DNA from: Geosiphon pyriformis uo1
Taxonomy: Eukaryota > Fungi > Glomeromycota
Direction: 5' to 3'
Assembly (NCBI GenBank): GCA_016748015.1
Contig: JAAOMT010000647.1
Span: 190,880-254,879, forward strand
Length of the DNA: 64,000 nucleotides
Made by a program: the position numbers and the translations under genes. Below the pieces are notes generated by a model. That model was given only the letters and a program-made list of their open reading frames with translations, was not told the origin of the DNA and did no database searches. Position 1 is the first letter of the stretch; each line of letters begins with the position of its first letter. Positions 1,140-48,544 of the stretch are shown here, in pieces.

Positions 1140-1158
1140 TTTGGTACTTCCTGTGAGG
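1140..1158 (+). promoter_or_regulatory. Primer-binding site of element B
   Basis: TTTGGTACTTCCTGTGAGG directly after the LTR; family consensus TGGTGCTTCCTGTGAGG is complementary to a tRNA 3' end ending ...GCACCA. Confidence 0.85.
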
Positions 1159-8657: not shown

Positions 8658-8670
8658 TTATTCCCTCCTT

Positions 8671-9330: not shown

Positions 9331-9354
9331 GTCTTTATATATTCTTTTGATGGA

Positions 9355-10737
9355 TCAATTTAACATGTTGTTGTCGATAATAACGATTGGTTCCAGATTT
9401 TGTGAAATCTTATCTGGTTAGACTAATATTCTCTGTACTCCTAATTGTGGAATATTACTGATAGATGGTAGTGTGATGTTGTGATATGATTTCAGTCAAT
9501 CTCTATGTGCTGCTTTGGTTAAAATTTTGTTATCCAATCTCAATTTGTAAGCTCCATTTTCTAGAATTTCTTCTATGTGAAATGGTCTATCCCATTTGAG
9601 ATCAAATTTTCCGCTCCATTGTTTTTCCGCTTTAGTACAATGTAGTAATATTTTGTCTCCAATCTTAAATTCAACTGGTTTGTCTGGTAGTTAACTATTA
9701 TGTCTTTCTTTCTGTTTTTTTTGTGACTTTTGAATATTATCAGCTGCTCTTCTTTATTTGTTTTCTAGTGTTTCCATTAAGTGATATGTTCTTCTCAGCA
9801 ATGTTTTTCAAAAATTTTCTTCTGTTATTGGTTCAGCTGGATATGTATTAATTTCTCTCTCTACTAGTAATGTTGTTGTTCTCCCATATACTAATTCAAA
9901 TGGTGTTGCTTGTGTAGTATCTTGTTTCATTATCTGATAAGCAAATAGTACTGATGGTATGAACAAATCTCAATTGTTTTGGTTTTCTTGGCTGAACTTA
10001 GCTATTGCTTCACACAATGTTTTGTTGAATCTTTCTACTAATCCATTGGTTTGTGGATGGTATGGTGATGATAATGGTCTCTTGATTCCAAATCTTTGGC
10101 TCAATTCTGTTAATGTTCTGTTCACAAAATGAGTTTCTTGGTCTGATAATAATTTTTTTGGACATCTATGTCAACAAATCAAATCCTGATGAACGAATTT
10201 GGCAATGGATTCTGCATCTGCTCTTTGAATTACTTTCACCTCTGGCCATTTAGTAAGATAGTCCATAGCTACTGCTATGTATCTGTTTCTTCTGCTGGTA
10301 ATTGTTAATGGTCCGACTAAATCAATTCCAATATAGTCGAATGGTTGTCCCACTTTGATTGGTCTTAATGGTTCACTGGGTCTTGTTCCTCCTTTTCGCT
10401 GACAAGCATCACAATTTTGAACATATTAAATGATGTTTGGGTACATTGATGGCCAATAATATCTCTTTCTGGTTCTTTCTATGATTGCTTCTTTGTGAAA
10501 ATGTCCTGCTGTTAGATTTGAGTGCATGTTGAATAATATTGTCTCTTTTTCTGGCTCTGTAATTACTCTGGTTGGTTGATCTGAATTCCTTCTATTTTTT
10601 TGATAAAGAATATTTTGGTGAGTGATAAAATATTTTGATTGTTGTTTGATACTCTTTCGTTCCATTTGAGATAAATTTTCCTTGAACTGTTAAGTGTTTA
10701 TATAATGTTTCAATTGTTGATATTTTTATATGTTCAT
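9355..10737 (-). pseudogene. Element C ORF2 integrase (HHCC, DDE, GPY/F)
   Basis: MHSNLTAGHF..RYYWP..CDAC, GIDLVG, SDQ, GLVERFN. Length 1383 nt. Confidence 0.9.
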
Positions 10738-10800
10738 CTTTTGTTGTATTTTTCCATTGGTATTGTTCTGGTTTTGTTATATTTTTGGGTTGAAATGTTC

Positions 10801-13800
10801 TTAGATTTGTTTCATTTGCAATAAACCATCCGCATTTCTATTGTTTTTTTCTTTTTTATAATGTATAGTATAATTATATGGTGCGAATGCCATTTTTCAT
10901 CTTGAATGTCTTCTATCTCCAAATTCTTGTTTTTGAAGTGATGTTAATTCTTTGTGATCTGTGTACATCTCAAACTTCTGACTCAAGTATTCTTTCCATT
11001 TTATAACTGCCCAGTATATTGCTAAGTGTTCTTGTTCCAGTGTTCCATAGTTTTTTTTGGCTGGTATTAAACCTCTGCTAGCATATGCTACTGGATGTTC
11101 TCTGTCGTCTGGTCCTCTCTAAGATAGTACTGCTTTTAATGCTTGGCTGGATGCATCAGTGGTAATGATGAATGGTTTGCTGTAATCTGGATAGATCAGT
11201 ACTGGAGCTTGGATGAGCTTTCTTTTCAAAATATCAAAAGCTTCTTGTTGACTTTCTGTTCATTCATATTTTGTATTTTTGTTTTGCAGTTGGTTGAGTG
11301 GCTGTGCTATTTTGGAGAAGTTCTTGATAAAACATTGATAGTAGCTGGCAAATCCCAAGAATGATTTCAGTTCTGTCATATTGGTCGGCACTGGAAAGTT
11401 CTTTACTATCTCTATTTTCTCTGGATCCATTTTGATGCCATTTTTACTGACTATGTGTCCCAAGAATTTTAGTTCTGTCTTGCCAAAGAAGCACTTTGTT
11501 GTATTTAATTTTAGTCCTGCTCTTCTTAGTTTTTCAAACACTTGTTAAAGATGATGAAGATGATCATCAAACGTTTTTGAGAATACATTGGTGTTGTCCA
11601 AGTATATAACTACTGATTTCCACAATAAGCCAGTATAAACGATTTCCATTAGTCATTGGAAAGTTGCTGGGACATTGGTTAAGCTAAATGGCATCACTTC
11701 AAATTCAAAATTCTCTTCTTCAATAGTAAATGCCATTTTCTCTTTGTCAACTGGATTCATGGCAACTTGCTAGTAACCACTGTCCAAATTTAATGTGGAG
11801 AACCATTTGTTCCTACTGAAAGCATTGAATAATTTCTGTATTCATGGAGTTGGATAACTGTCTCCACAAGTTACACTATTGAGTTTTCTGTAGTCTACAC
11901 AAAATTGGATTTTTCTATTCTTCTTATGGATGAGTATCACTGGTGACAACCATGGGCTCATTGATGGTTGAATTAGCCCATTGTTAAGCATTCTGTTTAT
12001 CTCTTGATGAATGATTTCATGGCTGGCTGGTAGCACTTTGTATGCTCTTTGTTTGATTGGTATTGCATCTTCAGTCTTGATCTAATGCTGAATAATATCA
12101 GTTTGGCCAAACTCATTTTCGTTGGCAAAGATGTTGTTGAAATTGTTGAGTAACATCTTGAGCTGTATACATTGAAGTGGATCTAAGTTTCCCATGTTTA
12201 TTTGTTTCAATTGTTCTGGTTGGAGCAAATAACATTTGTCTCATCCATAGATTGTTTGTGATGTGATGTCAACATATCCACAAAGTTGTGGAAAGTCTGG
12301 AATGGGATTTGGTTCTATTTCTGTGGTTAAATATCTAATGGTGGTTCCTTCTGGTATGTTGATGACATTGTCAGTGTTGTTGTAGATGAGAATTTTTATG
12401 CTGCTATAGCTTTTGGCTGGTATGTGGAGATTGATCAACCCAATCTCTCCTGATTCACAAAGGTTTGCTTCAGCTTCAAAAATCTGTCCTTGCTCCTTTT
12501 CCTTCCTTTCTATTGCTAGTATGTACTGGCTATATGGTGGAATAGAAATAGCTTGACCAGTTGAGATAATTTCTCCTTAGCCAACAATTTCTGCCTCTGC
12601 CATATTAACAGGTACTTCTATTTTACCCATTGATCTAAATCCTTGTATTCCTCTTGCTGTTATCCCTAATTCCTCTCTATTTCCCACTAATACTAACTGC
12701 ACTATTTTCACCAGAGGCAGAAATATTGCCTGTGCTATTTTTTCATTTGGCTCTATTATATAGGCCTTTTCAGAGTCGTTTTGTAGCATAGCAATGATAT
12801 TTCCCATGTATTCCACATTAATTATTCCTCTTCTGATGTTTATCTATCTTTTTGCTAAATTACTTCTAGATGCTAATTGAACCATTGTTGTTGCTGGAAT
12901 TTTTAAAGCTACTTTCAGATCAATGCAAGTGCATGAATGTGGTTCCAATTTGATGGCATCTTTTCCTGGGTATCTCAGATCAAACTCTGCATCAGTATCA
13001 TGCACGCATTCTGGCATGATATCTTCCCCCTTGTCACTATACTATTTCAACTCCTGCTCCTTGGAGAGATCTGGTAGTGCAATATATTGTTCATAGTTTG
13101 TATCAAAGTTTGGATCTGAGTTGGAATCATTGTTGTTGTTATTGCCATTTTGAATGGAGCTCAAACCATTGTTGTTGTCATCATTGTTGGAGTTTGAATC
13201 GGAATCAAGTGGTGATTCCAATTCTGATGTGCAGCTACTGATTGGTTCTTTCTTTTCGGGAATCATGTAGATTATGCGTGGTGGTGGATTGTAGATGAGC
13301 TCACACTCATTACAATATTAGAAGTTACATGGAATCAAACAGTAATCACATAATTGAGTGTTTAGCTGTGCTAAACGTTCTTCTTGTTCTTCTCTTGTGA
13401 GTGCTAGTCGCTGATAGTGTTCGTGAAATTTTTTTGGGTCATCTTCAACATTGTCAAAGACATCGAATGTTTGGACATATTCTGGTTCTGGCAGTGATAG
13501 TGGGTTGTCCTTAATTTCTCTCAGCTCTTCTGTTGTAGCACCTTTGGACATAGCATATGCCATTCTCCAGATCTCATCTTCATCATGTAGATATTTTTCC
13601 AGGTGTCTTAATGCTCGCTTCCAGATATCATTAATTGGAGTTCCCTTTCGTACCCATTCATTGATCAAGATCGTGTATTAATATGTTTTGTCGCATGCTC
13701 TCCCTCTTCCAGAATTGTCTTTCCACATTCCTTCATCCAAAAGAGTTTCTCCACAGGCTAGACACAAGGTACTGTCCCATTTTTCTATTTTTGGCAGTCA

Positions 13801-16800
13801 TTCATCACATTCAAAGATGCATGGGTGACAGTAGTATTCAGTTGCTGTCGTCCATTCTTTGTCTTTACTACAGCATGTGCCTATTGTTAACAATTTTTTA
13901 CCACAACTAACGCATACTAGTTTGGGTTGACAGTATTCTGTTTGTGGTGGCATAGAGTATGGAATATGAGCTGAATTGGTGCTTGGTGGTTGGTCGTCTT
14001 CCTTTTCTTTCTCTTTTCCCTTTTTTTCTCAGATTCACTTGGCAGTTGATTTGCTTAGTTTGTCCTTATTCCATGCTTCTAGGTTTGGCTTCCAGGTAAG
14101 TTCTTCTTCTTTCTTCTTTTCCTTGTCATTCTATGAGAGTATGGGTGGTACATTGTGATCAGCATTGGCCCAGGAGACTTGAAAAGCTTTCCAGATCAGC
14201 TTTTTTTCTTCCTCCAGCTTTATCAATGGTTCCTCTCTTGAAGAAACCTTGAAGTGGCCACACGTGGCTGGCACACGTGTGTGTTGACCATTGCCACTTA
14301 GTTGGAGCTCTTGCATTGTTCAGTTCAGAACAGTGTTGGTTTTGGACAGCCAGTTATTACCAATTAGAGCTTGGTATTGGGTGGCTTTCATCACCAAAAC
14401 TTTGATGAAAGTGATGATGCCATTAATTTCAAATGGAAAGTCATCTATCTTGCCAATTGGGGTTTTAGTCACTCCATCAGCAGTGATTATACAAGCACTA
14501 GCAGCCCAATCAACTCGGCAACCTAATTGGTCCATGAGTTGTTGTGTGATGATGCTGCCTGCTGAACTGCTATCAAGGATGAGTTTGATCAGATGTCCAT
14601 CTACTTTCACATCAGTGTACATCACTGTGATGGGTTTTTCCTTGAGAGTGGCTCCACTGAATAATGGTAATCAGGATTGTCCCTCCAGTTCAAAAGGAAA
14701 AATGGCTGCTAATAATTCGTCATTGGTGACCGTTGCTGGTGGAATGTTGTTAGTAAGTGTTGTCTGTTGGTTTGATTCCAAGTTGCTAGATGTGGCGTCT
14801 TCTGGAGTAATCAGAAAACTTAAATAATTTTGGGAATTCGGGTGTTGGGTGGTACTGGTATCTGAATTCTGAGAACAGAATCCTGAGCTTTAGTGAGAGG
14901 AACTAGGAATCATTTGATGAACAACCATCACCAATCTCCAATTTTGAGCAATTCTGGGTCTCAGGTTTCTTGATGTCATCATAGCTGAGTTTTGGAGTGG
15001 TGTTTGGATTGATAATTGAGACTGATAAATTATTTGGGGCTGTGGCTGATAAATCACTGGAGGCTACTGTCAATAAATTGCTGGTGGCTGCAGTTGATAA
15101 ACTGGGGTTTGATCTACTGGCGGTTGATAGATTGGTTGCTGCGTCATTGGCAGGTAAGTATTTTGATATTGGTCTTGATCTTGATTTGGATAATGATTTG
15201 GAGTTTGGAACCAGCGATCGGGGTTTTTGTATTGATTTCCTAATCATTGGTTGCTATAAGTATGGCAATTAACTCGAATATGGCCTTGTTTACCACAGTT
15301 TTGGTAGACACGTGTTTCTGGCTGTCATGGTGAACTAGGTGCTGTTGAGGATGATGAACATGATTGATTTTGAAAATGATTCATGTTTTCTGAATTATGG
15401 CGTCATTGTGGTGTTTGATATATGGCATGATTGTCAGCTAAGTATCCTTTCAATCTCTTATTAATTGATTTACTGAACTTCTCCAATTTGGAATCCAATT
15501 CAGATGATCTGTTTATTACTAGATTAACAGCTTGGACATGGTTAGTCTCTGACTCAGCAGATTCAAAATCTCTGGCATGTGTAACTGCATCTTGAAGGGT
15601 GCCTGGGTGCAATGGATGTACATGTTGCAAGATGCTGCTGTGCAGGCCACGGATAAACTGATTGAGTATCTGTGATGCTGTGAAATAGTTGGTGTCAATT
15701 GCTTGAATTTGACGCAGATTTTGATAGAAGCATCTCAGATAAGTGGTGACGGCTTCCGTTTCTTCTTGTTTCATGGTAGTGAACATGTTGATTAGGCAAT
15801 TGATACTGTTATTGTTGCTGAAGTATCTTAGGAATTCCACCTTGAAGGCATTGAAATCTTGTGATTTATTAATCAAACTCTGGTACCATGAATTGGCAGT
15901 ATTTTTGAGAAAGTAGAGAATAGCTTGTATTGCACGAGCGTCATTTCATCTGTTGGCTGTGATGGCCTTTTCTATATCATTCAGTCATACTTGAGCATCG
16001 TCCTCTTTGCCGGTAAAGTTGTCAAGTCTTGCAATTGGCACATAGGCCATTGGATCTAAGTTGAATGGTTGTGGTGGCTGTTGCTGAAGTTGTTGAAAAG
16101 ATAATGGTTGTTGGGGTGATACTTAAGGTGGTTAAATTGGCTCACCAATTGGCTCAATTGGTGGTTGATTAATGATGATAACTGGAGGTAGGTTTTGCTG
16201 ATGAATTAACTCAGGGTTTTGATTTCTTTGATTTGGCAGGGTTCGAATATTTGGAGTTTCGATTTCCAAATTTTCTAAATGTTGTTGAGTTTGAATGTTT
16301 GGGTTTTCTAGGATTGGGTTTTGGTAATTAAATTTCTGATCCTCGTCTTTTTCTTCTTCTGATTCAGTAATTTCTCAGGAACTGATGGTTCCAAAATCTG
16401 GCTGATGAGGTGGTGATCGAAATCCTGATGGTGTTGGCAATTTTGATTTAAATCCTTCAAAATAATTGCCATATGCTTCTAATAGTTTGTTTTTCTTTTG
16501 TTTACTCTAAAACATGATTCTTGCTAGTGGTGTCTTTGTACTGGTAGATGCATCTGCTGATGCGATGTTGATGGTACTTCTGGGCGTGTAATAGTATGAT
16601 GGATATATCAAAGATTTGATTCTTTGTTTCTTTCAGTTAGGAACTTGTATTCCTTTGGGTGTTACTGCTGGTGTTTGTAGTTTTCCTTTGCTCTTGTCCT
16701 AATAAGTAATAGAGAATGTCTTTTGTGTATATCTTTCAATTTCTTGGTTGATTTCTCTGATAATAGGTGTAAAGCTGTGATTTCTTGGTAAGTTGGTGTG

Positions 16801-17040
16801 TTGGATTAGTTCCGAATAGAAATTTTCTCTTGCTAATTCAATGTCAACTGGTCTTCCTAGGAAATTGGTGATTCTTTTGTTGACGTAGAAGTTGAAAGCT
16901 GATTCTGCTGGGTAATGGTTGTTGTTTTGGCCTAACTGCTGGCTGTACTGTTGAAATAAGAATTTTGCGAATCCTAAATGGTTTGTCCCTATTATTTCTG
17001 ATTCTGCTACTTTTGGTTTGGTGTTGTTAGTGCTGGTTCT
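10801..17040 (-). pseudogene. Element C ORF1 gag-PR-Cys-rich-dUTPase-RT-RNaseH
   Basis: ORF fragments 15403-15876 (capsid), 14320-14625 (protease), 13318-13668 (Cys-rich), 12577-12816 (dUTPase), 11842-12036 and 11260-11541 (RT). Confidence 0.9.
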
Positions 17041-17072
17041 CTGTAAGATTATACCTCACAGGAAGCACCAAA

Positions 17073-17911
17073 TGTTATAGGTGATTATTTCTGCTGTTGA
17101 ATTAAATAACAAACCCGTAACTTGGTGCTCAAAAGCTACTTCTGTTGATAATATTCTGTAAGTGTTGTATCTGAAAGGTTTTGATGGAGTCTTTTGTATA
17201 ATAGACAGAGATTCAATAGTTGTTTTATCCATAGCTTCCCAGACTCACAAGTCTGTCAATTTTTTTCTTGGCTTGGTGGCCGGCAATCCTCTGGTAAGTA
17301 ATCCATATCTTCTGTATGTGTCCTACCCACTCACAGGAGTCTTTTACCAGGCAATCCTTGACATCAGTAATCAGCGCTTTTAATTAATTGGTTAGTACCC
17401 AATACAAAATCATAGAAAATAAAGAAAATAAAAAAATCTAAAGAAATAAGCCAAGGCGATTTGCAAATTAGTATCCCATCAATAGCCATGATCAAGAGCT
17501 ATTGTTCCAGCGTGGTTTTAAGTATCAATTACTATCAACATGAAGTGCTAATAGTGAGGAGTAGATTGAGATATAAAATAATTATTTATTTGAGAATTGT
17601 GTTTCTGAGTTAAGGATTCTGTCATATCGATTCTGTTTTTTCTGTTTCTAATATTACTACTATATATACATAATTGAGATTTCTCAATTCCTCAATTCTT
17701 CATGACAGGAATTCTGAAATTCCTGGAATCCTGTAATTCCTTTGAGAGAAATTCTGGAATTCTGGAATCCTGCAATTCTTCATTGGAGAATCCTCAAATT
17801 TCTGGAATTTTGCAATTCCTGAAAGGAATCCTGGAATTCCACATTTACTATGCCTACTTCTGATTGGCTAATAATTATGCTAATATATTTCCTATATTTC
17901 TATGAGTAACA
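17073..17911 (-). repeat. 5' LTR of element C (U3 type beta)
   Basis: Followed on the minus strand by PBS TTTGGTGCTTCCTGTGAGG (17054-17072). Confidence 0.93.
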
Positions 17912-18830
17912 ACAGCTTATGGAAATTGTTTATACCAGACTGCTATGGAAATCAGTAATTGTGTACTTGGATGACACCAATGTGTTCTCAAAATCATTTG
18001 ATGATCATCTGCATTATTTCCAACAAGTATTTGAAAGACTCAAAAGAGCCGGATTGAAACTAAATACAACTAAGTATTTCTTTGAAAAAACTGAACTCAA
18101 GTTTTTGGGACATGTTGTAAACAAAGATAGTATTAAAACAGATCCAGATAAGATTGCAATAGTAAAGAACTTTCTAGTACCAACCAATTTGACAGAATTA
18201 AGAGCATTTTTGGGATTTGCAGGCAATTATCAATGTTTTATCAAGGAGTTTTCTAAACTGGCTCAGCCACTTCATCATTTACAAACTAAGAATGTCAAGT
18301 ATGAATGAACAGAAGCTCAAAAAAAAGCATTCAATATACTGAGACAAAAGCTTATTCAAGCTGCAGTGTTGATGTATTCAGATCACAGCAAACTATTCAT
18401 TATCATCACCGATGCATCAAGTCAAGCATTGGGGGCAGTACTATCACAAAAAGGACCAGATGAAAGAAAGCATCCAGTAGCTTATGTCAATAGAAGCTTA
18501 AGTCCAGTTGAAAAAAACTATGAAACTCCAGCACTGGAACACTTAGCCATCTATTGGGCTATTACCAAATGGAAAAAATACTTGAGTTAAAAGTTTGATA
18601 TATATACTGATTACAAAGAATCAACTTCAATCTAAAAGCAAAAATTTGGAGACGATCATCATACAAGATAGAAAATAGCACTATCACCATATACATTTAC
18701 AGTACATTATAAAAAGGGAAAAGACAATAGAAATGCTGATAGTTTGTCGTAAATGAGACAAATCTAGAATGTTTTAACTCAAAAATATAACAAAAGACTC
18801 AAATAATTAAAGACAAAAATATAACAAAAG

Positions 18831-20213
18831 ATAAACACACAAAAATACTAACAACTCTAGCATTATATAAATACTCAATTATTCAAAGAGAAATTATCTC
18901 AAAAAAAACAAAATAACATAAAACAGCAATTAAAATATTTTATCAACCACCAAAATATACTTTACTGGAAAAACAGAAAGAATTCAGATAAACCAACCAG
19001 AGTAATCACAGAACCAGAAAAAGAGACAATATTATTTAACATGCACTCAGATCCAACAGCAGGACATTTTCATAAAGAAACAACCATGAAAAAAACCAAA
19101 AAAAGATACTATTGGCCATCAATGTATCTAGACATCATCTAATATGTTCAGAATTGTGATGTTTGTCAGAGAAAAAGAAGAACAAGACTAAATGAACCAT
19201 TAAGACCAATCAAAGTGGGACAACCATTTGATCGAATTGGAATTGACTTAGTCAGACCATTAACAGTTATCAGCAGAGACAACAGATATATTGCAGTAGC
19301 CATAGACTATTTTACTAAATGGCCAGAAGCAAAAGCCATTCAAAGAGCAAATGCAGAATCAGTGGCCAAATTTGTTTACCAAAATTTAATCTGTCAATAT
19401 GGATGTTCAAAAAAATTATTATCAGATCAAGGAACTTATTTTGTGAATAGAACATTAGCAAAATTAAGTCAAAGATTTGGAATCAAAAGACCATTATCAT
19501 TGTCATACCATCCACAAATGAATAGATTAGTTAAAAGATTTAACAGAACATTGTGTGAAGCAATTGCCAAGATCAGTTAAAAAAACCAGGATGAATGGAA
19601 TTTGTTTATACCATCAGTACTATTTGTTTATCGAACAATAAAACAAGATACCACACAAGCAACACTATTTGAATTGGTATACAGTAGAACAGCAACATTA
19701 TCAGTTGAGATAGAAGTCAACACTTATTCAACAGAACCAATAACTAAAGACAATTTTCAGAAAACATTGTTGAGAAAAACATATGACTTAATGGAAACAC
19801 TAAAAAACAAATGGCAAAAAGCAGTTAATAACATTCAAAAGTCACAAGAGAAACAAAAAGAAAGACACAATAACCAACTATCAGATAAACCAATTAAATT
19901 CAAGATTGGAGACAAAGTACTTTTATATTATACTAAAGCAGAAAAACAATAAAGTGGAAAATTTGATCCCAAATGGGATGGACTATTTCACATAGAAGAA
20001 ATTCTTGGAAATAGAGCTTATAAATTAAGATGGGACAACAAAATTTTAGCCAAAGCAGCACATGATGATCAACTGAAACCATATCACCATATAGTATTAC
20101 CATTCACTAGTAATATTCCACAATTAAGAGTACAGAGAATACTAGTCCAACCAGATGAAATTTCATAAGACCTGAAACCAATCATAATCATTAAACCAGA
20201 CACGTAAAATTGA
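18831..20213 (+). pseudogene. Element B ORF2 integrase
   Basis: MHSDPTAGHF, GIDLVRP, SDQGTYF, KWDGLF. Length 1383 nt; start codon mutated to ATA. Confidence 0.88.
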
Positions 20214-20772
20214 ACAATAAAAAGAGTATATAAAAGACACAATATACGTGACAAAAGCAAACAAGAAAAATAGAAATACCAGATCATATTTACATCATAG
20301 CTCAACAATTATTCCAGGCCTTAAGTTAACAATCTTTAAACATAAAAATTATTGTTAACAACCAAACAATTTGCTATCAAAACACCAAAAAAAAGACAAA
20401 AAATACACCATATCAATATTTACCAAAGAATGATAAAAACTGGTTAGATAACATAATAGAAAAAGTAAAGAACACTTTTGGAAAAATATCTATTATGGTG
20501 CCAACAGAAGAACTTACAAAAGAGAATTAGAAGCAATAGACAGAACAACTTCCAATATCATACTGCTACTACCAATTAAGTCGAAAGTTGAATATTTGGG
20601 AGTTGTATATTGACAAATCCAAGAGAATATTCAACCAAAACATAATACAACAAATTGAAAAATTTATCGGAAAGAAAATGACACTACATGTGAGAACAAT
20701 TTACCATCTACACAGCATATTTCAGAACTATCCAAAATTACTGTTACATTCCAACATGGAAACCATAACTAT

Positions 20773-21658
20773 TGTTACTCATAAAAATATAGGAAATATA
20801 TTAGCATGATTATTAGCCAATCAGAAGTAGGCGTAGTAAATGTGGAATTTCAGGATTCCTCTTAGAAATTGCAGGATTCCAGGAATTTTAGAATTCCCTG
20901 ACGAGGAATTACAGGATTCCAGAATTCCAGGATTCCTCTCAAAAGAATCGCAGAATTCCAGGAATTTCAGGATTCCTGTCATGAAGAATCGAGGAATTGA
21001 GGAATCTCAATTATGTATATATAGCAGTAGTGTTAGAAACAGAAAAAACAGAATTGATACGACAGAATCCTTAGCCCAGAAACACAATTATCAAATAAAT
21101 AATGATTTCATATCTCAATCCACTCCTCACTATCAACACTTCATGTTGATAGTAATTGATACTTAACCATGCTAAAACAATAGCTCTTGATCATGGCTAT
21201 TGACAGGATACTAATCTGCAAATCACCTTGGCTTATTTTTTTTATTTCATTTTCTTTTCTTTCTTTTCTTTTCTTTTTTTTCTTTGTGTTGTTTTGTTGT
21301 TGTATACTAATTGATTAAAAGATTAAGCACTGAGTTATTAATGTCAAGAATAGCCTGGTAAAAGACCCAGAAATAAGGGTAGAATTTTATATATTATCAG
21401 ATAACTTACCAGAAAGGCACAACTGCCAGACTAAATCTGGCCACCATGCTGAGAAAAAAATTGGAAAAACTCTTGGAAAGATACATCTACTATCGACACT
21501 ATTGAATCTCTGTTTATTATACAAAGAACTTAACCCAAAACCTTCAGATATCAAAACCTTCAGATTACCAATACCAATATCCACATTAAGATAGCTTTTG
21601 GAGCACCAAGTTACAGGTTTGTTATTTAATTTCACAGCAGAAATAATCACCTGTAACA
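20773..21658 (+). repeat. 5' LTR of element D (CCAAT box AGCCAATCAG ~20815, GGAATTCC-type repeat array 20844-21005, TATA ~21016)
   Basis: TGTTAC..GTAACA termini; motifs seen directly. Confidence 0.93.
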
Positions 21659-21690
21659 TTTGGTGCTTCCTGTGAGGTATAATCCTACAG

Positions 21691-24600
21691 AGAACCAGCA
21701 CCAACAATACCAAACCAAAAGTGACAGAATCAGAAAATATAGGAGCAAACCATTTAGAATTCACAAAATTCTTATTTCAACACTATTGTCAATACTTGGG
21801 ATTAAACCACAATCATATATCCACCGAATCAGTTTTCAATTTCTACATCAATGAAAAGATTTCCTTTTTATTAGGAACACCAGTGAATACTGAATCAGCA
21901 AGAGAAACTTTCTATAGGGAATTAATTCAAAACACCAACCTACCAACAAATCATAATTTTGCATCCATCATCACTAAGAACAACAAAGAAATTGAACATC
22001 ACACTCAACAAAAATATCCAATTACATATGCTAGTAAAGGCAAGGGAAAATTACAAACACCAGCAGTAACACCCATAAAAATATAGCCACTTACTTAGAA
22101 GAAAAACAGAGTTGAATCCCCAAGCAACCCATCTACCACTATACACCTGGAAGCACCATCAACATATTATCAACAGATGCATTCTCATCAACTGTCACAT
22201 CAGTATTTAGACGATTCTCATTCCAAAGTAGACAAAGAGAGGAATTTAATTTGCGATCATCAACCCCATCAGGACTTCAATCACTACCACCTCCACCAGA
22301 TTTCGGAATCTTTGATCTGTGGGAAGCAGCGGAATCAGAAAAAGAGGAAGAAGAATCAGAGGATCAAGAATTCACTTATCAGCACCCGATCATTGAAAAC
22401 CCAGAAGTTGAAACCCCAAATTTTCAAACTCAGCAAAATCCAGATCTAGAAAATTAGGAAATCGAAACTCTGAATCATCAAAGGCAGAACAATCCAAACC
22501 CCAAATTAATTAATCAGCAAAACTTACTTCCAGTAATTGTCATTGATCAACTGCCAATTAATCCTATAGCCGAACTCATACAGCAGCCACTTCAACTACC
22601 ACCTCAACAACCAGTACAACAACAACTGTTTCAACAGCCACCACAACTACCTAACTTAGATCCAATGGCCTACACACCAATCACAAAACTTGACAACTTT
22701 ACTGGTGAAGAGGATGACACTCAAGTATGGCTGAATGATGTAGAAAAAGCCATCGCAACCAACAGATAAAATGATGCCTAAGCAATGCAAGCCATTCCCT
22801 ACTTTCTCAAGGATACTGCCGATTCATGGTACCAGAGCTTAATTAATAAACCACAAGATTTCAATGCCTTCAAAATGGAATTCCTAAGATACTTCAGCAA
22901 CAATAACAGTATCAATTGCCTAGTCAACACATTCACCACCATAAAACAAGGAGAAACAGAAGCCATCACCACTTACTTAGGACGCTTCCATTGAAATCTG
23001 TGCCAAATTCAAGCAATTGACGCCAACTATTTCACAGCACCACAGATACTCAATTATTTTATCCATGGCCTGTGCAGCAGCATCTTGCAACATGTATGTT
23101 CGTTGCATCCAGGCATCCTACAAGACGCAGTTACACACACTAGAGATTTTGAATCCATTGAGTCAGAGGTTAACCATGCCCAAGCCATTAATCTAGTAAT
23201 GAATGGATCATCTGAATTGGATTCCAAATTGGAGAAGTTTAGTAAATCAATTAATAAGAGATTGGAAGAATACTTAGCTGACAATCATGCCATTTATCAG
23301 TCTCCACAATGACACAATAATCAAAAAAACTCTAATCGTGCCCAAAATCAACCACGTTCATCTTCATCAACCAATTAAAAGTGGCAACAGGAAATGCGTA
23401 TCTGCCACTATTGTGGTAAACAAGAACATATCCAAATTGACTGTTGCCAGTGTTTAAATAACCAATGATCAGGAAATCAATAACAAAATCCCATTGCTGG
23501 TTTCAAACTCTGAATCAGTACCCAAATCAAAACCAATCCGCTTACCTACCAGTGACGTAGTCATCAGTCTATCAGTCTCTGGTGTATCAAGCTCCAATTT
23601 ATCAACCACAGCCACAAGTGATTTATCAACAACTGCAGCCACAAATAATTTATCAGTCTCAACCATCAATTCAAACACCACTCCAAAATTCAGCTACGAT
23701 GACATCAAGAAACCCAAGACCCAGAATTGCTCAAAATTGGAGATCAGCGATGATTGTTCATCAACCGATCCCCAGTTCCTCTCACCAAAGCTCAGAATTT
23801 CATTCTCGGAATTCGGGTACTGGCACCACCCAACACCCAAATTCCCAAAATTATTTAAGTCTCCTGGTTACTCCAGAAGACGCCACATTTAGCAACTTAG
23901 AATCAGACTAACAGACAACACTTACCAACAACATCTTACCAACAATGGTCACTAATAACAAATTATTAGCAGCCATCTTCTTTTTTGAACTGGAGGAACC
24001 ATCCTGATTACCATTATTCAGTGGAGCCGCCCTCAAAGAAAGATCCATCGCAGTGATGTACACTGATGCGAAAGTAGATAAACATCCAATCAAACTCATT
24101 CTTGATAGCAGTTCAGCAGGCAGCATCATCATGTGACAACTTATAGACCAATTAGGTCACCAAGTTGATTGGGCTGCTAGTGCTCATATAATCACTGCTA
24201 ACGGAGCGACTAAAACCCCAATTGGTGAGATAGATAACTTTCTATTTGAAGTCAATGGCATCATCACTCCTATCAAAGTCTTGGTGATGGAAGCCCCCCA
24301 ATATCAAGCTCTAGTTGGTAATGACTGGCTGTTCAAAACCAACATTATTCTGGACTGGATGATACAAAAGCTCCAACTAAGTGACAATGGTCAACACACA
24401 TATGTGCCAACTATGTGTGGCCACTTCAAGGTTCCTTTAAGAGAAAAACCATTGATAGAGCTGGAGGAAGAAAAGAAGCCTATCTGGAAAGCTTTTCAAG
24501 TCACTTGGACCAATGCTAATCACAATGAACTACCACCCATACTCTCATAGAATAACAAGGGAAAAAAGAAAGAAGAAGAACTTACCTGGAAGCCAAACCT

Positions 24601-27600
24601 AGAAGCATGGAGTGAGGATGAACTAAGTAAATCAACCACCAAGTGGACCTGGGAAGAAAAGTGAAAAGGGAAAAAAAAAGAAGACGACCAACCACCAAGC
24701 ACTAATTCAGCTCATATCCCATACTCTACACTGCCACAAACAGGATACTATCGACCCAAACTGGTATGTGTCAGTTGTAGTAAGAAATTGTCAACAATGG
24801 GCGCATGCTGTAGTAAGGACGAAGAATAGACAACAGCAACTGAATACTACTGTCGCCCATGCATCCTTGAATGTGATGGACAACTGCCAAAAATGGGAAA
24901 ATGGGACGGTATCTTGTGTCTAGCCTGTGGAAAGACTCTTTTGGATGAAGAAATGTGGAAAAACATTCCTGGAAGAGGGGAAGCATACAACAAAACATGC
25001 TAATACACGATCCTAATCAATGACTGGATATGAAAGGGAACTCCAATCAACAACGCCTGGAAGCAAACATTAAGGCGCCTAGAAGGATACCCACACAACA
25101 AAGATGAGATCTGGAGAATGGCATATGTTATGTCTGAAGGTGCTACAACAGAGAAGCTAAGAGAAATTAAGGACAACCCACTATCATTGCCAAAACCAGA
25201 ATACATCCAAATGTTTGACATCTTTGGCAACATTAAGGATGACCCAGAAGAGTTTCACGAACACTACCAGCGACTAGCATCCACAAGAAAAGAACAAGAA
25301 GAACATTTAGCACAGCTAAACACTCAATTATGTGACCACTGTTTGATTCTATGTGACTTCCAATATTGTAATGAGTGTAACCTTATCTATAATCCACCAC
25401 AATGCATAATCTACATGATTCCCAAAGAGAAAGAACCAATCAGCAGCTGCACATCAGAATTGGAATCACTGCTCAATTCTGATTCAAATTCTGACAATAA
25501 TGATAACAACAATGGTTTAAGCTCTGTTCAAAATAGCAATGACAATGACAATGATTCCAACTCAGATCCAAACTCCAATACAAACTATGAACAATATATT
25601 GTACTACCAAATCTTTTTAAGGAGCAGAAGTTGAATTGGTATAGTGACAAGAGGGAAGGTATCATGTCAGAACACACACATGATACTGATGCAGGGTTTG
25701 ATCTGAGATACCCAAAAAAAGATGCCATCAAATTAGAACCACATTCACACACCTGCATTGATCTGAAAGTAGCACTAGAAATTCTAACAACAACAATGGT
25801 TCAATTAGCATCTAGAAGTAGTTTAGCGAAAAGAGAGATTAATATAAGAGGAGGAATAATTGACATGGGATATGTAGAAAATATCATCACTATGCTACAA
25901 AATGACTCAGAAAAGACCTATATAATAGAACCCAACAAAAAGATAGCACAGACAATATTCTTGCCTCTGGTTAGAGTAGCTCAGTTAGTATCAGTAGGAA
26001 AGAAGGAGGAATTAGGAATAACAACAAGAGAAATACAGGGATTCGGGTCAACAGGTAGAATAGATGTACCAGTTAATATGGTGGAGAAAGAAATTATTGG
26101 CCAAGGAGAAATTATCTCAACCGGTCAAGCTATTTTCATTCCATTATATAGTCAGTACATACTAGCAATAGGAAGGAAAAAAAAGGAGCAAGGACAGATT
26201 TTTGAAGCTGAAGCAAACCTTTGTAAATCAGGAGAGATTGGGTTGATCAATCTCCACATACCAGCCAAAAGCTATAGTAGCATAAAAATTCTCATCTACA
26301 ACAATACTGGCAATGTCATCAACATACCAGAAGGAACCACCATCGGATATTTAACCACAGAAATAGAAGACCAACCACCAAATCCCATTCCAGACTTTCC
26401 ACAACTTTGTGAATATGTTGATATTACATTACAAACAATTTATGGATGAGACAAATGTTATTTGCTTCAACCAGAACAATTGGAACAAATGAACATGGGA
26501 AACTTAGATCCACTCCAATGTATGCAGCTCAAGATGTTACTCAACAATTTCAATGACATCTTTGCCAGCGAAAATGAGTTTGGCTGAACTGACATCATCT
26601 AGCATCAGATCAAAACTGGAGATGCAATGCCAATTAAACAAAAAGCATACAGAGTACCGCCAGCCAGCCACAAGATCATTTGTCAAGAGATAAACAGAAT
26701 GCTTAACAATGGGCTAATTCAACCATCAATGAGCCCATGGTTATCACCAGTAGTACTCATCTGTAAAAAGAATAGAAAAATCCAATTTTGTGTAGACTAC
26801 AGAAAACTCAATAGTGTAACTCGTGGAGACAGTTATCCAACTCCACAAATACAGGAATTATTTGATGCTTTTGGTGGGAACAAATGATTCTCAACATTAG
26901 ATTTGGACAGTGATTACTGGCAAGTAGCTATGAATCTGGTTGACAAAAAGAAGATGGCATTTACTACTAAAAAAGAGAATTTTGAATTTGAAGTGATGCC
27001 ATTTGACTTAACCAATGCTCCAGCAACTTTCTAATGGCTAATGAAAATCATTTATATTGACTTATTGTGGAAATCAGTAGTTGTATACTTGAACAACACC
27101 AATGTATTCTCAAAAATGTTTGATAATTATCTTCATTATCTTCAACAAGTGTTCAAAAGACTAAGAAGAGCAGGACTAAAATTAAATACAACAAAGTGCT
27201 TCTTTGGCAAAACAGAACTAAAATTCTTGGGACACATAGTCAGCAAAAATGGCATCAAAACGGATCCGGAGAAAATAGAGATAATAAAGAACTTTCAAGT
27301 ACTGACCAATATGACAGAACTGAAATCATTCTTGGGATTTGCCAGCTACTATCAACATTTTATCAAGAACTTCTCCAAGATAGTGCAGCCACTCAACCAA
27401 CTGCAAAACAAAAATACAAAATATGAATGGACAGAAAGTCAACAAAAAGCTTTTGATATTCTGAAAAAAAAGCTCATCCAAACTCCAGTACTGATCTATC
27501 CAGATCACAGCAAACTATTCATCATTACCACTGATGCATCCAGCCAAGCATTAGGAGCAGTACTATTTCAGAGAAGACCAGACGGCAGAGAACATCCAGT

Positions 27601-27889
27601 AGCATATGCCAGCAGAGGTTTAACACCAGCCAAAAAGAACTATGGAACACTGGAACAAGAACACTTAGCAATATACTGAGCAGTCATAAAATAGAAAAAA
27701 TACTTGAACCAGAAATTTGAGGTGTACACAGATCACAAAGGATTAACATCACTTCAAAAACAAGAATTTGGAGATGGAAGACAGTCAAGATAGAAAATGA
27801 CACTTGCACCATACAATTATACTATACATTATAAAAAAGAAAAAGACAATAGAAATACGGATGGTTTATTGTGAATGAGACAAATCTAA
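21691..27889 (+). pseudogene. Element D ORF1 gag-PR-Cys-rich-dUTPase-RT-RNaseH
   Basis: Capsid 22665-23312, Zn knuckle CHYCGKQEHIQIDC, protease LILDSSSAG, 443-aa ORF 25118-26449 with dUTPase, RT/RH 26627-27889. Confidence 0.92.
25660..26060 (+). pseudogene. dut: dUTPase domain within ORF1 of D (homologues in A, B, C, F and H)
   Basis: All five trimeric-dUTPase motifs in order: DAGFDL, ASRSSLA, GIIDMGY, KIAQ, REIQGFGSTG. Confidence 0.93.
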
Positions 27890-27952
27890 GAACATTTCAA
27901 CCCAAAAACATAACAAAACCAGAACAATACCAATGGAAAAATACAACAAAAG

Positions 27953-29335
27953 ATGAATATACAAAAATATCAACAATTACAACATTATATAAACACTCAA
28001 TAGTTCAAGGAGAATTTATCTCAAATGGAACAAAAGAGTATCAAACAACAATTAAAATATTTTATTACTCACTAAAATATACTTTATCAGAAAAATAGAA
28101 GGGATCTAGATCAACCAACCAGAGTAATTACAGAGCCAGAAAAAGAGACAATATTATTCAACATGCACTTAAATCCAACAGTAAGACATTTTCACAAAGA
28201 AGCAACCATGGAAAGAACCAAAAAGAGATACTATTGGCCATCAATATACCCAGACATTATTCAATATGTTCAAAATTGTGATGCTTGTCAGCAAAGAGAA
28301 GAAACAAGACCCAGTGAACCATTAAGACCAATCAAAGTGGGACAACTATTCAACCATATTGAAATTGATTTAGTTAGACCATTAACAATTACCAGCAGAG
28401 GAAACAGATACATAGCAGTAGCTATGGACTATCTCACTAAATAGCCAGAAGTGAAAGCAATTCAAAGAGTGAATGCAGAATCCGTTGCCGAATTCGTTCA
28501 TCAGGATTTGATTTGTCAACATGGATGTCCAAAAGAATTATTATCAGACCAAAGAACTTATTTTGTAAACAAAACATTAACAGAATTGAGCCAAAGATTC
28601 GGAATTAAGAGACCACTATCATTACCATACCATCCACAAACCAATGTATTAGTCGAAAGATTTAACAGAACATTGTGTGAAACAATAGCTAAACTCAGCC
28701 AAAAAAACCAGAATGATTGGGATTTGTTGATACCATCAGTACTATTTGCTTATCAGACAATGAAGCAAGATACTATACAAGCAACACTATTTGAATTGAT
28801 ATATGGTAGAACAGCAACACTACCAGTGGAAATAGAAGTCAGCACATACCCAACCAGACCAATAACAGAGGAGAATTTCAAAAATACATTGTTGAGAAGA
28901 ACATATGACTTAATGGAAACACTAGAAAACAAACAACAAAGAGCAGTTGATAACATACAAAAGTCACAAGACAAACAAAAAGAAAGACATAATAACCAAC
29001 TACCAGATAAACCAGTTGAATTCAGGATTGGAGACAAAGTATTACTATATTATACCAAATCGGAAAAACAATGGAGTAGAAAATTTGATCCCAAATAGAA
29101 TGGATCATTTCACATAGAAAAAATTCTAGGAAATGGAGCTTACAAATTAAGATTGGATAACAAAATTTTAACCAAAGCAGCACATGGAGATCAACTGAAA
29201 CCATATCACAACATCACACTACCATCTATTAGTAATATTTCACAATTAGGAGTACAGAGAATACTAGTCCAACCAAATAAGATTCCACGAGATCTAGAAC
29301 CAATCATTATTATTGACAACAACACATTAAATTAA
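27953..29335 (+). pseudogene. Element D ORF2 integrase
   Basis: ATG at 27953 (MNIQKYQQL). HHCC, IDLV, SDQ and VERFN motifs. Length 1383 nt. Confidence 0.9.
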
Positions 29336-29359
29336 TCCATCAAAAGAATATATAAAGAC

Positions 29360-30005
29360 ATGGTAGACGTGACAGGAAATATCAGAAAAATGGAAATTAC
29401 AGACAACATTTACTCACTAGCACAACAACTCTTTCAATTAATCCAACACTAGGAAATGGAGATTACAATCAATCAACAAACCATTCAATATCAAGATACT
29501 AAAAAGACATTGCAACTCAGAACACAGAAAAAACTGAAAATACTGTGGACAAAATCATGGCAAAAGTAAAATTAGCAATAAAAGAGTCGACAAAAGAGTC
29601 ACTATATCAAGAGTTGACTAAAGAAACTTGAAACTGGTGGATACAACAATTTCCACGAAACTATTGTTATTTTTACTTAGGATGACATGTAAATATCCAG
29701 AATCTATATATGGATAAGACAAAATGATTATTTGACAAAAGAATACTACAATAATTAGAACATTTTGTGGGAAAAAACAGGCCCAAGCCATATACCAAAT
29801 ACACACAGCATTTCAGGATAGACCAGAAATATTGCTCAACAAAGCAATGGATATGATTACCAGTAATCAATTGGGAAAAATCACCAATGCTCAATTTAAA
29901 GAATTACAGACCCAAATAACACAAGTAATTCTCGAAAACAAAATCCAGGAAATACTTCAAGAGGGGGAGTTAAATGAGTTGGATTTCAACAGAGCTCAAT
30001 ATTAA
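29360..30005 (+). pseudogene. Element D ORF3, unknown protein
   Basis: Homologous to 57322-57981; small deletions and stops. Confidence 0.72.
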
Positions 30006-30018
30006 AAAGAGGAAATAA

Positions 30019-30915
30019 TATTACTCATAAAAATATAAGAAATATATTAGCATGATTATTAGCCAATCAGAAGTAAGCATAGTAAATGTAGAATTCCAGG
30101 ATTCCTCTCAGGAATTGCAGGATTCCAGGAATTTCAGGATTCCCCGACAAAGAATTGCAGGATTCCAGAATTGCAGAATTCCTCTCAAAGGAATTGCAGA
30201 ATTCCAGGAAGGATTCCTGTTGTGAAGAATTGAAGAATTGAGGAATCTCAATAATGTATATATAGCAATAGTATTAGAAACAGAAAAAACAGAATTGATA
30301 TGACAGAATTCTTAGCCCAGAAACACAATCATCAAATAAATAATTATTTCATATCTCAATCCACTCCTTACTATCAACACTTCATGTTGATAGTAATTGA
30401 TACTTAACTACACTGAAACAATAGCTCTTGATTATGGCTATTGACAGGATACTAATCTACAAATTGCCTTGGCTTATTTTCTTTATTTCATTTTCTTTTC
30501 TTTCTTTTCTTTTCTTTTCTTTCTTTGTGTTGTTTTGTTGTTATATACTAATTGATTAAAAGATTAAGCACTGAGTTATTGACATCAAGGATAGTCTGGT
30601 AAAAGACCCAGAAATAAGGGTAGGATTTTATATATTATCAGATAGCTTACCAGAAGGGCATGACTGCCAGACTAAATCTGGCCACCACACTGAAAAAAAA
30701 ATTGGGAAAACTCTTGGAAAGATACATCTACTATTAACACTATTGAATCTCTGTCTGTTATACAAAGAACTCAACCCAAAACCTTCAGATATCAAAACCT
30801 TCAGATATTAAAACTTTCAGATTACCAATACCAACATCCACATCAAGATAGCTTTTGGAGCACCAAGTTACGGATTTGTTATTTAATTCCACAGCAAAAA
30901 TAATCACCTGTAATA
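30019..30915 (+). repeat. 3' LTR of element D
   Basis: Follows the PPT; colinear with 20773-21658. Confidence 0.93.
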
Positions 30916-31059
30916 CTATTAACCAATAGAGAAGAATGAACAACATACAAATAAAAAAAATAAGAAATAGAGTCAAACAAACAATACTGGAAAATAAAGT
31001 ATTAGAGCTAATTCAAAATGATGATTTCGACAGAGCTCAATATTAAAAGGAGAAGATAA

Positions 31060-31935
31060 TATTACTTATAAAAAGAAAACAGATATAAGAAAATAGTAGA
31101 CCAATAAGAAAATAGTAAGTAGCATATGAGCATATTGCTCAACAATGTCAGAAATCACAGCACATTGCTTAGCAATATGAAACAATATCAGAAGTCATGA
31201 CACATTGCTTAGCGATGTGGAGTGATGTTAGAAAATTAGGGCACATTGCTCAGCAATGTAAACATTGCTCAAAAAAATCATAGCACATTGCTCAAAAATA
31301 TGAGCAATCTTGTAAAACATCAATTATGTATATATAGCAATAGTATTAGAAGTAAAAAAAACAGAATCTTTTAGTTAGAGACCTTCTAGTTTAAATTTGA
31401 TCTAAACAATCTTCCACATTACAATATCAATAAAATAAATATTTATTATCTCAATCCACTCTCCATTATCAACACTCTATGTTGAAAAAAGTTAATACTT
31501 AAACACACTGGAACAATGACTCTTGATCACAGCTATTAATGGGATACTAACTTGCAAACGCCTTGGCTTATTGTCTTTTCCTATTTTTTTTTATTTTCTT
31601 TTCTTTGATTATTTTGTTGTGTTTACTAATTGATTAAAAAGATTAAGTGCTGAATTACTGACATCAAGGATTACCTGATAAAAGACCCCTGCAAGTGGAT
31701 AGAGCACGTAAAAGACTTATGGATTACTTACCAGAGGATTGCCAGCCACCATGCTGAGAAAAAAATTGACAGAATTGTGATTCTGAAAAGCTACAAAAAA
31801 ACAACTAGTGAATCTCTGCCATTATACAAAGAACTCAACAAAAACCTTTAAATACTACCAACATCTATATATCAATTGAGCACCAAGTTATGGGTTTGTT
31901 ATTTGATTTGAGACCCCAAATAATCACTTGTAACA
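31060..31935 (+). repeat. 3' LTR of element B
   Basis: Follows PPT AAAAGGAGAAGATAA; colinear with 267-1139. Confidence 0.93.
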
Positions 31936-38999: not shown

Positions 39000-39867
39000 T
39001 GTTACTCATAGAAATATAGGAAATATATTAGCATAATTATTAGCCAATCAGAAGTAAGTATAATAAATGTGGAATTTCAGGATTCCTCTCAGGAATTGCA
39101 GGATTCCAGGAATTTCAGAATTCCCAATAAGGAATTGCAGGATTCCAGAATTCCAGAATTCCTCTCAAAGGAATTGCAGAATTCCAGGAATTCCAGGATT
39201 CCTGTCATGAAGAATTGAGGAATTGAGGAATCCCAATTATGTATATATAACAGTAGTGTTAGAAACAGAAAAGACAGAATCGATACCACAGAATCCTTAG
39301 CCAAGAAACAAAATTATCAAATAAATAATTATTCCATATTTCAATTCACTCTCCACTATCAACACTTTATGTTGATAGTAATTGATACTTAACCACACTG
39401 GAACAATAGCTCTTGATCATGGCTATTGATGGAATACTAATCTGCCAAACTGCCTGGGCTTATTTCTTTTCTTTCTTTATTTTCTTGTATTTTCTTTTCT
39501 TTATTTTATTTGATTTGATTGTTATGTATTCTAATTGATTAAAAGATTAAGCACTGAGTTATTGACGTCAAGGATAGCCTGGTAAAAGACCCAGAAATAA
39601 GGATAGGATTTTATATATTATCGGATAACTTACCAGAAGAACATGGCTGCCAGACTAAATCCAGCCACCATGCTGAGAAAAAAATTGGGAAAACAACTTA
39701 AAAATACAACTACTATCAACCTTATTGAATCTCTGTCCATTATACAAAGGACTCAACCAAAACCTTCAGATAACAATACCTTCAGAACATCATCAATGGA
39801 ACTAGCTTTGAGCACCAAGTTACAGGTTTGTTATTTAATTCAACAGCTGAAATAATCACCTGTAACA
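39000..39867 (+). repeat. 5' LTR of element F
   Basis: TGTTAC..GTAACA termini, CCAAT box, beta repeats, TATA ~39242; followed by the PBS. Confidence 0.93.
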
Positions 39868-46963: not shown

Positions 46964-46965
46964 AT

Positions 46966-47011
46966 NNNNNNNNNNNNNNNNNNNNTTTCTTTTTTTTTTT
47001 TATTTTTTTTT

Positions 47012-47051
<40 letters not shown>
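46966..47051. other. Assembly gap (20 N, 46966-46985) next to a poly-T tract
   Basis: Seen directly. Confidence 0.95.
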
Positions 47052-47052
<1 letters not shown>

Positions 47053-47109
47053 TGATTTGTTTTTGTGAGATTGTTTCTAAATTATAAGAGAATAACTAAT
47101 AAAATTAAA

Positions 47110-48495: not shown

Positions 48496-48544
48496 TGTTT
48501 GTTGTTTTAATGCTGTTAATTCAAATGGGTGTTGGTTTTGTTTT

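Follow-up and report, generated by a model that had tools for sequence, protein, structure and literature searches.

The 64,000-nucleotide (nt) stretch of the Geosiphon pyriformis genome analysed here, hereafter the window (contig JAAOMT010000647.1, positions 190,880 to 254,879, forward strand), contains a long terminal repeat (LTR) retrotransposon, copy C, that is a Ty3/Gypsy variant with a real departure in gene layout. In this element and its relatives the integrase is encoded by a gene of its own, placed after a fixed stop codon, and a conserved third gene follows; we regard this architecture of the lineage as hardly open to doubt. Textbook LTR retrotransposons, like retroviruses, bring their integrase into the particle within Pol, and a lineage that splits off its integrase must solve expression, dosage and packaging differently from textbook elements. 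For the mechanism of expression, which we infer from sequence, we favour a model that as a whole has about an even chance of being correct: the integrase would be produced by ribosomes that restart after the upstream gene, and the third open reading frame (ORF3) would encode a regulator made from an internal promoter. LTR elements are reported to account for 41.2% of the G. pyriformis genome (PMC11952901).

The window is a nest of decayed LTR elements, among which we distinguish family-1 copies A, B, C, D, F and G and family-2 copy H (letters were assigned afresh in this analysis and may not equal those of a preliminary description of this DNA). The limits of copy C given in that description proved exact, with TGTTAC at the start, an LTR at the end and the target duplication CTAT flanking the element on both sides. 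Direct LTRs with TG...CA ends, a primer-binding site (PBS), a polypurine tract (PPT) and the target duplication are all present, as in Ty3/Gypsy (Metaviridae) elements, and the domain order gag, protease (PR), reverse transcriptase (RT), RNase H (RH) and integrase (IN), with Ty3-type capsid, RT and RNase H, is also that of Ty3/Gypsy. A textbook trait that is absent at the DNA level is an integrase within the Pol polyprotein, in place of which we find a fixed stop and an integrase with its own Met. The parts of copy C, all on the plus strand, are as follows.

20773..30915: copy C, a dead Ty3/Gypsy LTR element, starting with TGTTAC at 20773
20773..21658: 5' LTR, with TG...CA ends and GGATTCC repeats in U3
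21014: TATA-like box in the 5' LTR
21661..21677: PBS, starting with TGG
21721..22664: ORF1 leader, an ATG-poor N-terminal extension of some 315 codons without a Pfam family
22665..27889: ORF1 from the capsid ATG, encoding capsid, zinc knuckle, protease, Cys-rich region, dUTPase, RT and RNase H
24760-25400: Cys-rich domain, some 300 residues long, separating protease from dUTPase (50950-51570, minus strand, in copy H)
27890..27952: A/C-rich non-coding spacer of 63 nt, from the RNase H stop to the integrase ATG
27953..29335: ORF2, the free-standing integrase, 460 codons, with YPYY-like N-terminus, H2C2, DDE core and SH3
29349..29356: TATATAAA box in the integrase-ORF3 spacer, a candidate internal promoter
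29390..30005: ORF3, about 209 residues, mostly helical, broken by stops and two deletions
30004..30018: PPT, abutting the ORF3 stop
30019..30915: 3' LTR, with the CTAT duplication beyond it

Consistent with the three conserved ORFs proposed in the preliminary description, Pfam domains over copies C, F, H and B follow the order gag, protease, dUTPase, RT, RNase H, integrase H2C2, rve and SH3, those of ORF1 (with the Cys-rich region between protease and dUTPase) lying in a single frame in F, B and H. In copy C this ORF, which ends at the TAA at 27887-27889, is interrupted by numerous stops and by a frameshift near 23492. Because ORF1 reads in one frame over 1844 codons in copy F, 1843 in B and 1870 in H, the window families use no Gag/Pol frameshift; in a five-copy alignment every indel common to several copies has a length divisible by three, and no frameshift occurs in more than one copy (copy C has two). 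The dUTPase domain (PF00692; E = 1.5e-18 in C and 2.3e-18 in H) lies between protease and RT. The Cys-rich stretch of copy H matched no Pfam family, and in-frame Pfam scans of the leader and Cys-rich stretches of that copy returned no family except a weak zinc knuckle.

The separation of the integrase is seen directly at the junction. RNase H terminates at a stop, no more than five codons past its last motif, in all six window copies that cover the site (5/5 family-1 copies, namely C, B, F, A and D, and family-2 copy H), and the integrase starts 31-64 nt past this stop (49 nt in H), off frame in F, D and H. In a public DNA contig run (bin depth 652,455) we found no alternative letter at 4% or more at positions 27887-27889 among 638 contigs, and at least five of the eight internal integrase and ORF3 stops of copy C were the sense letter at 90-99% of depth in the best 40 of 256 rows; it must be held against this evidence that the assembly may derive from this run, which would then sample more copies but no independent organism. 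Copy D carries a 31-nt off-frame spacer, and the contigs show signs of a short spacer as well (lower depth across 27918-27937, loose ends and a skip of 32 nt), so that the short off-frame spacer is apparently the form of most genomic copies.

Given the condition of the window, the split could be an artefact of decay, in which a normal fused pol had its linker hit by C-to-T stops and indels and ORF3 is a chance frame. Gln codons do often become stops here, at up to three of five copies at one integrase site and four of four at one ORF1 site. Most of the 77 stop columns of ORF1 are confined to one copy, and one three-copy column is a mixture of TAG and TGA over Trp; none of the 25 internal stop columns of the integrase, four of which are stops in copy C, is common to all five copies. 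The stop at 25001 of copy C (25001-25003, between protease and dUTPase) is present in 4/4 family-1 copies, and the site is Gln in copy H and in proteins P0271 and P0283; we read it as a decay hot spot or a programmed stop in a subfamily, and prefer the hot spot. Because of this site, the sharing of a stop inside the window is insufficient by itself. The RNase H stop, however, is invariant in the 638 contigs and present in the near-intact element L004 and in loci L016 and L022 from outside the window, and ORF3 evolves at a ratio of nonsynonymous to synonymous rates (dN/dS) of 0.11-0.16 and exists as full-length intact proteins. On these sequence comparisons the decay artefact is refuted, and we assign it practically no probability. 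An ordinary fused pol was found neither in the genome-wide contigs, which keep the stop, nor in L004, which has the same layout.

The layout is not confined to this genome, which bears out the suggestion in the preliminary description of an old lineage. The pattern of the PPT-LTR edge was found at 14 loci in metagenomes, one of which (L004) is such an element and 13 of which had no tblastn match of any kind. L004 has an open RT-RNase H ending in TAA, a 24-nt spacer, an integrase 57% identical to that of copy H with one internal stop, and an intact ORF3; the closest solved structure to its RT-RNase H is Ty3 (E = 6e-47, against 2e-20 for the next). An integrase scan of a genome collection gave a further 14 loci. 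The close ones, L016, L017 and L022 (47-54% identity), are split, with non-coding spacers of 102, 94 and 117 nt (the RNase H identity of the ORF upstream in L017 is not established), whereas seven distant Gypsy loci (32-37% identity) have RNase H and integrase fused at the DNA level; L026-L029, whose junctions had decayed too far, were excluded from the count and the tree. Because contigs of bacterial bins here carry eukaryotic Gypsy elements, we take L016-L029 to be bin contamination. In an integrase tree of the fetched loci (16 rows, midpoint root, distant outgroup) the nine split rows stood on one side of a 100/100 branch and the seven fused rows on the other. By their sequences the split-integrase rows are related; to the detriment of any evolutionary reading, the fused outgroup is so distant that the tree can neither date nor count the split, nor order events. 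Scans of 194 and 11 stretches of viral contigs revealed no integrase relatives, and the LTR-edge pattern gave one phage locus among viral contigs, judged a chance match. In L016 (1-1150) the RNase H has a long acidic, Cys/His-containing tail ahead of its stop, and at 3050-4638 the 3' LTR is followed directly by the PBS and gag of a next element, as in tandem copies sharing an LTR.

How might a separate integrase be translated? We counted ten split junctions, those of the window copies and of L004, L016, L017 and L022. Their spacers are non-coding, measure 24-117 nt and, in the window copies and L004, consist of A and C to 71-92%. The integrase start occupies one alignment column, is ATG in eight junctions and ATA in two (decayed copies), and has A at position -3 in 10/10. 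The spacer is off frame in four of the ten, and five of the other six contain extra in-frame stops. Readthrough of the stop codon, which would make the integrase a fusion and Pol ordinary at the protein level, draws on the in-frame spacers of C, B and A and above all on L004, with one in-frame stop and eight sense codons before the Met. It is at odds with the off-frame junctions and extra stops, with the apparent prevalence of the short off-frame spacer and with the conserved integrase Met and its A at -3, which together largely refute it for Geosiphon, L016, L017 and L022; overall we consider readthrough very improbable.

We favour reinitiation after the RNase H stop, which the junction sequences suggest with about equal chances for and against. 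A fraction of the terminating ribosomes would scan the short unstructured spacer and start on the integrase, which would stay scarce, and the free integrase would enter the particle by binding Gag, RT or RNA, not within Pol. Since the junction of the near-intact L004 measures only 24 nt, integrase expression is directly testable by a reporter. Several points tell against reinitiation. It is described as rare after a long ORF and as requiring RNA signals or a protein factor (PMC3542737), and the TGGGA motif of a termination upstream ribosome-binding site (TURBS) occurs in 0/10 regions (150 nt upstream; 139 nt for L017). No stop overlaps a start, the longest spacer measures 117 nt and an upstream ATG is present in 5/10 junctions. 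The L004 spacer is in frame with a single stop, where readthrough alone would suffice. Finally, T-rich tracts ending in AG, 9-30 nt upstream of the ATG in L016, L017 and L022, resemble splice acceptors by eye.

These tracts would suit a different origin of the integrase, from a subgenomic RNA of its own that either is joined by splicing to the LTR leader or begins within RNase H. Such an RNA would leave spacer length and frame free, as they are, and is compatible with the lack of TURBS motifs and with our finding no conserved RNA structure at the RNase H-integrase junction. The LTRs of both families contain an intron-like acceptor, and foamy viruses, which are described as making Pol from a spliced RNA, provide a precedent (PMC7828637). 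The spacers of the window copies and L004, however, are A/C-rich and without a pyrimidine tract, that of L004 has no G and hence no AG, the TATAAA near the RNase H end falls on Tyr-Lys codons and does not occur in F or H, and the start lies near the stop in 10/10 junctions. We therefore hold the subgenomic RNA to be a tentative alternative to reinitiation. Separate packaging of the integrase follows if either of the two holds. Within the long spacer of C, B and F (27932-27957) a seven-codon upstream ORF has a TGA that overlaps the integrase ATG (ATGA) and is absent from the short spacer; in L022 an ATGA at the RNase H stop opens a 20-codon ORF. GCTGAT codons at the RNase H end were tried as a branch point and dropped, as codon bias explains them and the tail of L016 places them 1.1 kb from the start.

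The integrase itself is conserved (dN/dS 0.21-0.40) and includes, read by eye, a YPYY-like motif before H2C2. A chromodomain was not found at its C-terminus, where only SH3_Tf2-1 was matched in the copy F and L004 integrases, and a homolog search with the N-terminus matched 0/20 candidates.

The third gene follows the integrase stop and extends to the PPT; in family 2 and L004 it continues into the LTR. It encodes 209-239 residues and is frame-intact in B, D, F and G, with private deletions of 1 and 13 nt in copy C. In five of six pairs its dN/dS is 0.11-0.16 (0.46 in the closest, near-identical pair), and by these rates ORF3 is under purifying selection as strict as that on the integrase. The ORF3 proteins of the two families align end to end at 21% identity over 122 residues (E = 2e-4), and homology between the families and metagenome proteins is full-length. 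Homolog searches matched 219 of 275 candidates for family 2 and 118 of 196 for family 1; among the matches listed, all 118 of family 1 and all of family 2 (at least 120) were G. pyriformis proteins, the best being 86-93% identical. A profile recovered 115 proteins among 1.84 billion, and the ten looked up comprised six from Geosiphon and four from metagenomes. L016 encodes a remote 146-residue member at the same position (12.0 bits, while none of 971 scored shuffles exceeded 7.8). L022 is without ORF3, having no room before its PPT, and ORF3 is thus not universal in the lineage; nor was a dUTPase seen in L022.

As the preliminary description supposed, ORF3 is a protein of a kind not otherwise recognized: it matched no Pfam family, and the ESM Atlas had no entry for three ORF3 proteins. 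In the homolog searches it accounts for more than 300 clusters of 'hypothetical protein', so that recognizing it tidies gene catalogues and adds a new protein family to them. Geosiphon proteins include no fewer than three additional ORF3 types (P0262, P0267 and P0294), and by these types the lineage is diverse in the Geosiphon genome. Many Geosiphon ORF3s have been joined by gene predictors to unrelated exons. In copy H a poly-A run and a 20-base gap (46966-47075) replace the ORF3 start; this is probably an assembly fault, the family proteins carrying about 55 more residues there.

A first structural model of ORF3 was poor (mean predicted local distance difference test, pLDDT, 45.8), and a second, of P0266, reached 75.1, with a helical core above 80 over residues 81-210. 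The second model had no match at E 0.001 in PDB or BFVD and none at Z 5 among 48,161 chains, in a comparison effective only for residues 77-223, for which reason a new fold is not established. With regard to a helix-turn-helix domain, the best of the weak fold rows had Z 4.2; ParB, Spo0J and KorB followed at Z 3.2-4.0 (root-mean-square deviation 3.0-5.4 over 59-93 residues), tied with unrelated rows. ORF3 has no membrane segment and does not fit the membrane fusion protein of env-bearing Gypsy elements (errantiviruses), given a maximal 19-residue hydropathy of 0.27-1.29 in eight proteins, one to three Cys, no env family and a helical model.

The TATATAAA box lies in the 54-nt spacer upstream of ORF3 in 6/6 family-1 copies. 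In L004 this spacer measures 316 nt and contains a TATA box and two short upstream ORFs, on account of which scanning to ORF3 is disfavoured there; TGCCCT occurs twice in the spacer and four times in the LTR of L004, each count being reached in 0/2000 shuffles. The boxes suggest that ORF3 is probably transcribed from the spacer TATA box, and its product would act in trans. If ORF3 has its own promoter, the element would be only partly multi-cistronic. Our first choice for its function, held with somewhat less than even confidence, is a DNA-binding regulator that would recognize motifs common to the LTR and the spacer promoter. Against such a regulator, its DNA-binding role is drawn from position and weak fold rows, the isoelectric point of ORF3 spans 5.1-9.3, the main LTR repeat of family 1, GGATTCC, is not in its integrase-ORF3 spacer, and the motif shared by spacer and LTR was chosen after being seen.

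Two other functions can be set beside this one. ORF3 might be a translational transactivator like TAV, made from a short 3' RNA and enabling reinitiation at the integrase. Position and apparent own promoter are as described for TAV (PMC3542737), no cis reinitiation signal was found at the junction, and L004, L016 and the two families of the window all pair ORF3 with a split integrase; but L022 combines a split integrase with no room for ORF3, and ORF3 has no sequence link to any known family, so that we consider this improbable. An accessory role, in anti-silencing, copy-number control or as an adaptor of integrase to the particle, would suit a soluble helical protein kept under selection despite strong C-to-T decay and CpG depletion (0.23). 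It has no direct support, L022 again does without ORF3 and the motif shared by LTR and spacer in L004 better fits promoter binding; such a role is therefore unlikely in our view, though well worth keeping beside the preferred DNA-binding regulator.

A further peculiarity concerns the start of ORF1, whose frame opens 240-325 codons upstream of the capsid ATG (21721 in copy C, 39930-40910 in F, 53431-54148 on the minus strand in H). The first codon of this leader is GTG in C, F, A and H, GTA in B and ATG in one further copy. Each of five copies has three ATGs in the leader where shuffles predict 7.6-11, and 0, 0, 20, 2 and 3 of 1000 shuffles were as low; the rest of ORF1 has 22-25 ATGs per kb and no 900-nt window with fewer than seven. 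An ATG-poor leader opening with GTG in both families suggests a weak GUG start with leaky scanning. Translation of full-length RNA would begin at the GUG and, where ribosomes scan past it, at the capsid AUG, and the two starts would probably give a longer and a shorter polyprotein, each running from Gag to RNase H without a Gag/Pol frameshift. Alternatively, the start of the leader may be spliced in, as AG precedes the TG. Both LTR types contain a long pyrimidine tract ending in AG (21235-21325; 54500-54545, minus strand), accompanied in family 1 by a branch-like CTAAT and an AG near 21304; these tracts mark a possible 5' leader intron. The gag of L016 begins at an ordinary ATG.

With yeast Ty3 and other Ty3/Gypsy elements these copies share LTRs, PBS, PPT, Ty3-type capsid and the order PR-RT-RH-IN; they differ in an integrase outside Pol, the lack of a Gag/Pol frameshift in the window families, the third ORF, the 4-bp target duplication and the missing chromodomain. 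The claim that the lineage is undescribed held in part. A dUTPase between PR and RT and additional ORFs are already described in fungal Gypsy elements (PMC2864245; PMC6431247): PosPlaTy3-5, Tuber Tmt1 and Phanerochaete elements have the dUTPase where it is here, and 'add. ORF' elements have extra ORFs of unknown function. By their description, dUTPase-bearing Gypsy elements mostly comprise one fused ORF or gag plus pol, with no separate integrase named (PMC2864245). In a survey of fungi, integrase is taken to be the final part of pol (PMC3248453), and papers on transposons of arbuscular mycorrhizal fungi, in the excerpts at hand, mention Gypsy or LTR abundance only. The literature searched, which did not cover Repbase, GyDB and Dfam, describes no Gypsy element whose integrase has an ORF to itself, and it is within that literature that the separate integrase is new.

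A lone integrase gene inside an LTR element bears on the relationship between Ginger1 and Gypsy integrases, which is presented as open (PMC2836005). As described there, Ginger1 resembles these copies in a lone Gypsy-type integrase gene with H2C2, DDE and GPY/F and a YPYY-like motif, which here was read by eye, in TGTTA ends and in 4-bp duplications, which in Ginger1 are of the CCGG/ACGG type. Ginger1 has terminal inverted repeats and OTU/Ulp1, whereas here we find a full LTR retrotransposon with direct repeats around gag-RT-IN, no terminal inverted repeats around the lone integrase gene and no OTU/Ulp1 domain. If this likeness reflects descent, the lone integrase gene, YPYY-type and accompanied by 4-bp duplications, would represent the missing halfway state from Gypsy to Ginger1. 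More broadly, it is conceivable, if rather unlikely in its entirety, that an old and widespread fungal Gypsy lineage acts like a complex retrovirus or pararetrovirus, with GUG/AUG leaky scanning that yields two Gag-Pol forms, a restarted and separately packaged integrase, a trans-activator of new fold made from an internal promoter and a halfway state to Ginger1.

The Tas regulator of foamy viruses has a 3' position, and no link of ORF3 to Tas was shown. Foamy viruses share with our model an enzyme made apart from Gag and packaged separately, an internal promoter and a regulator, Tas, but split off the whole Pol by splicing with integrase inside (PMC7828637); here it is the integrase alone, and there is no env. 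Consecutive long ORFs on one RNA are described for caliciviruses and victoriviruses, which use reinitiation, and for caulimoviruses, which use TAV; the caulimovirus likeness includes a 3' ORF with its own short RNA and, in rice tungro bacilliform virus (RTBV), a non-AUG start with leaky scanning (PMC3542737). Unlike TURBS-type reinitiation, our junctions have no TURBS motif and no stop/start overlap, and no homology to TAV was shown. Retand/TRP28 plant Gypsy elements likewise have a conserved extra ORF between pol and the 3' LTR, proposed to be a DNA-binding regulator, but theirs are antisense and in plants (PMC11963269), and the ORF3 here has no Pfam match.

The other copies of the window show how far the layout is preserved. 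It had been reported for most of them; C, B, F, A, D and H do share the RNase H stop, but the layout stands entire in one piece only in B and C, D and G being 3' fragments and A being split by three insertions.

267..31935, plus strand: copy A, the oldest shell, hosting a solo LTR, B and C
7820..17911, minus strand: copy B, the second full-length family-1 copy, 84% identical to C
39000..58822 (39000-45463 and 55179-58822), plus strand: copy F, interrupted by copy H, duplication ATGC
45464..55175, minus strand: copy H, family 2, with the three-ORF layout of family 1

Copy H is 52% identical to C in RT-RNase H and integrase and 21-24% in ORF3. Copy A received B in RT, C in ORF3 and the solo LTR (2056-3303) in the gag region, and H inserted in the RT of F; most insertions in the window thus hit older copies, with 4-bp duplications. 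The duplications CTAT and ATGC are exact, and two others are decayed and compatible with a CGG core. The LTRs of copy C differ at 67 positions in 881 columns, and LTR differences are transitions in 64/67 cases in C, 75/79 in B, 55/58 in F and 35/35 in H. Decay in the window is C-to-T and G-to-A across all neighbour contexts, beyond CpG, whose observed/expected ratio is 0.23 in the window and 0.21 in L004. A family-2-like LTR is fused directly to a protease-region fragment at 37252-38999 (minus strand), and decayed frames at 62300-63705 (minus strand), with a weak RT match (E = 0.0075) unlike the Gypsy copies, are perhaps a remnant of a long interspersed nuclear element.

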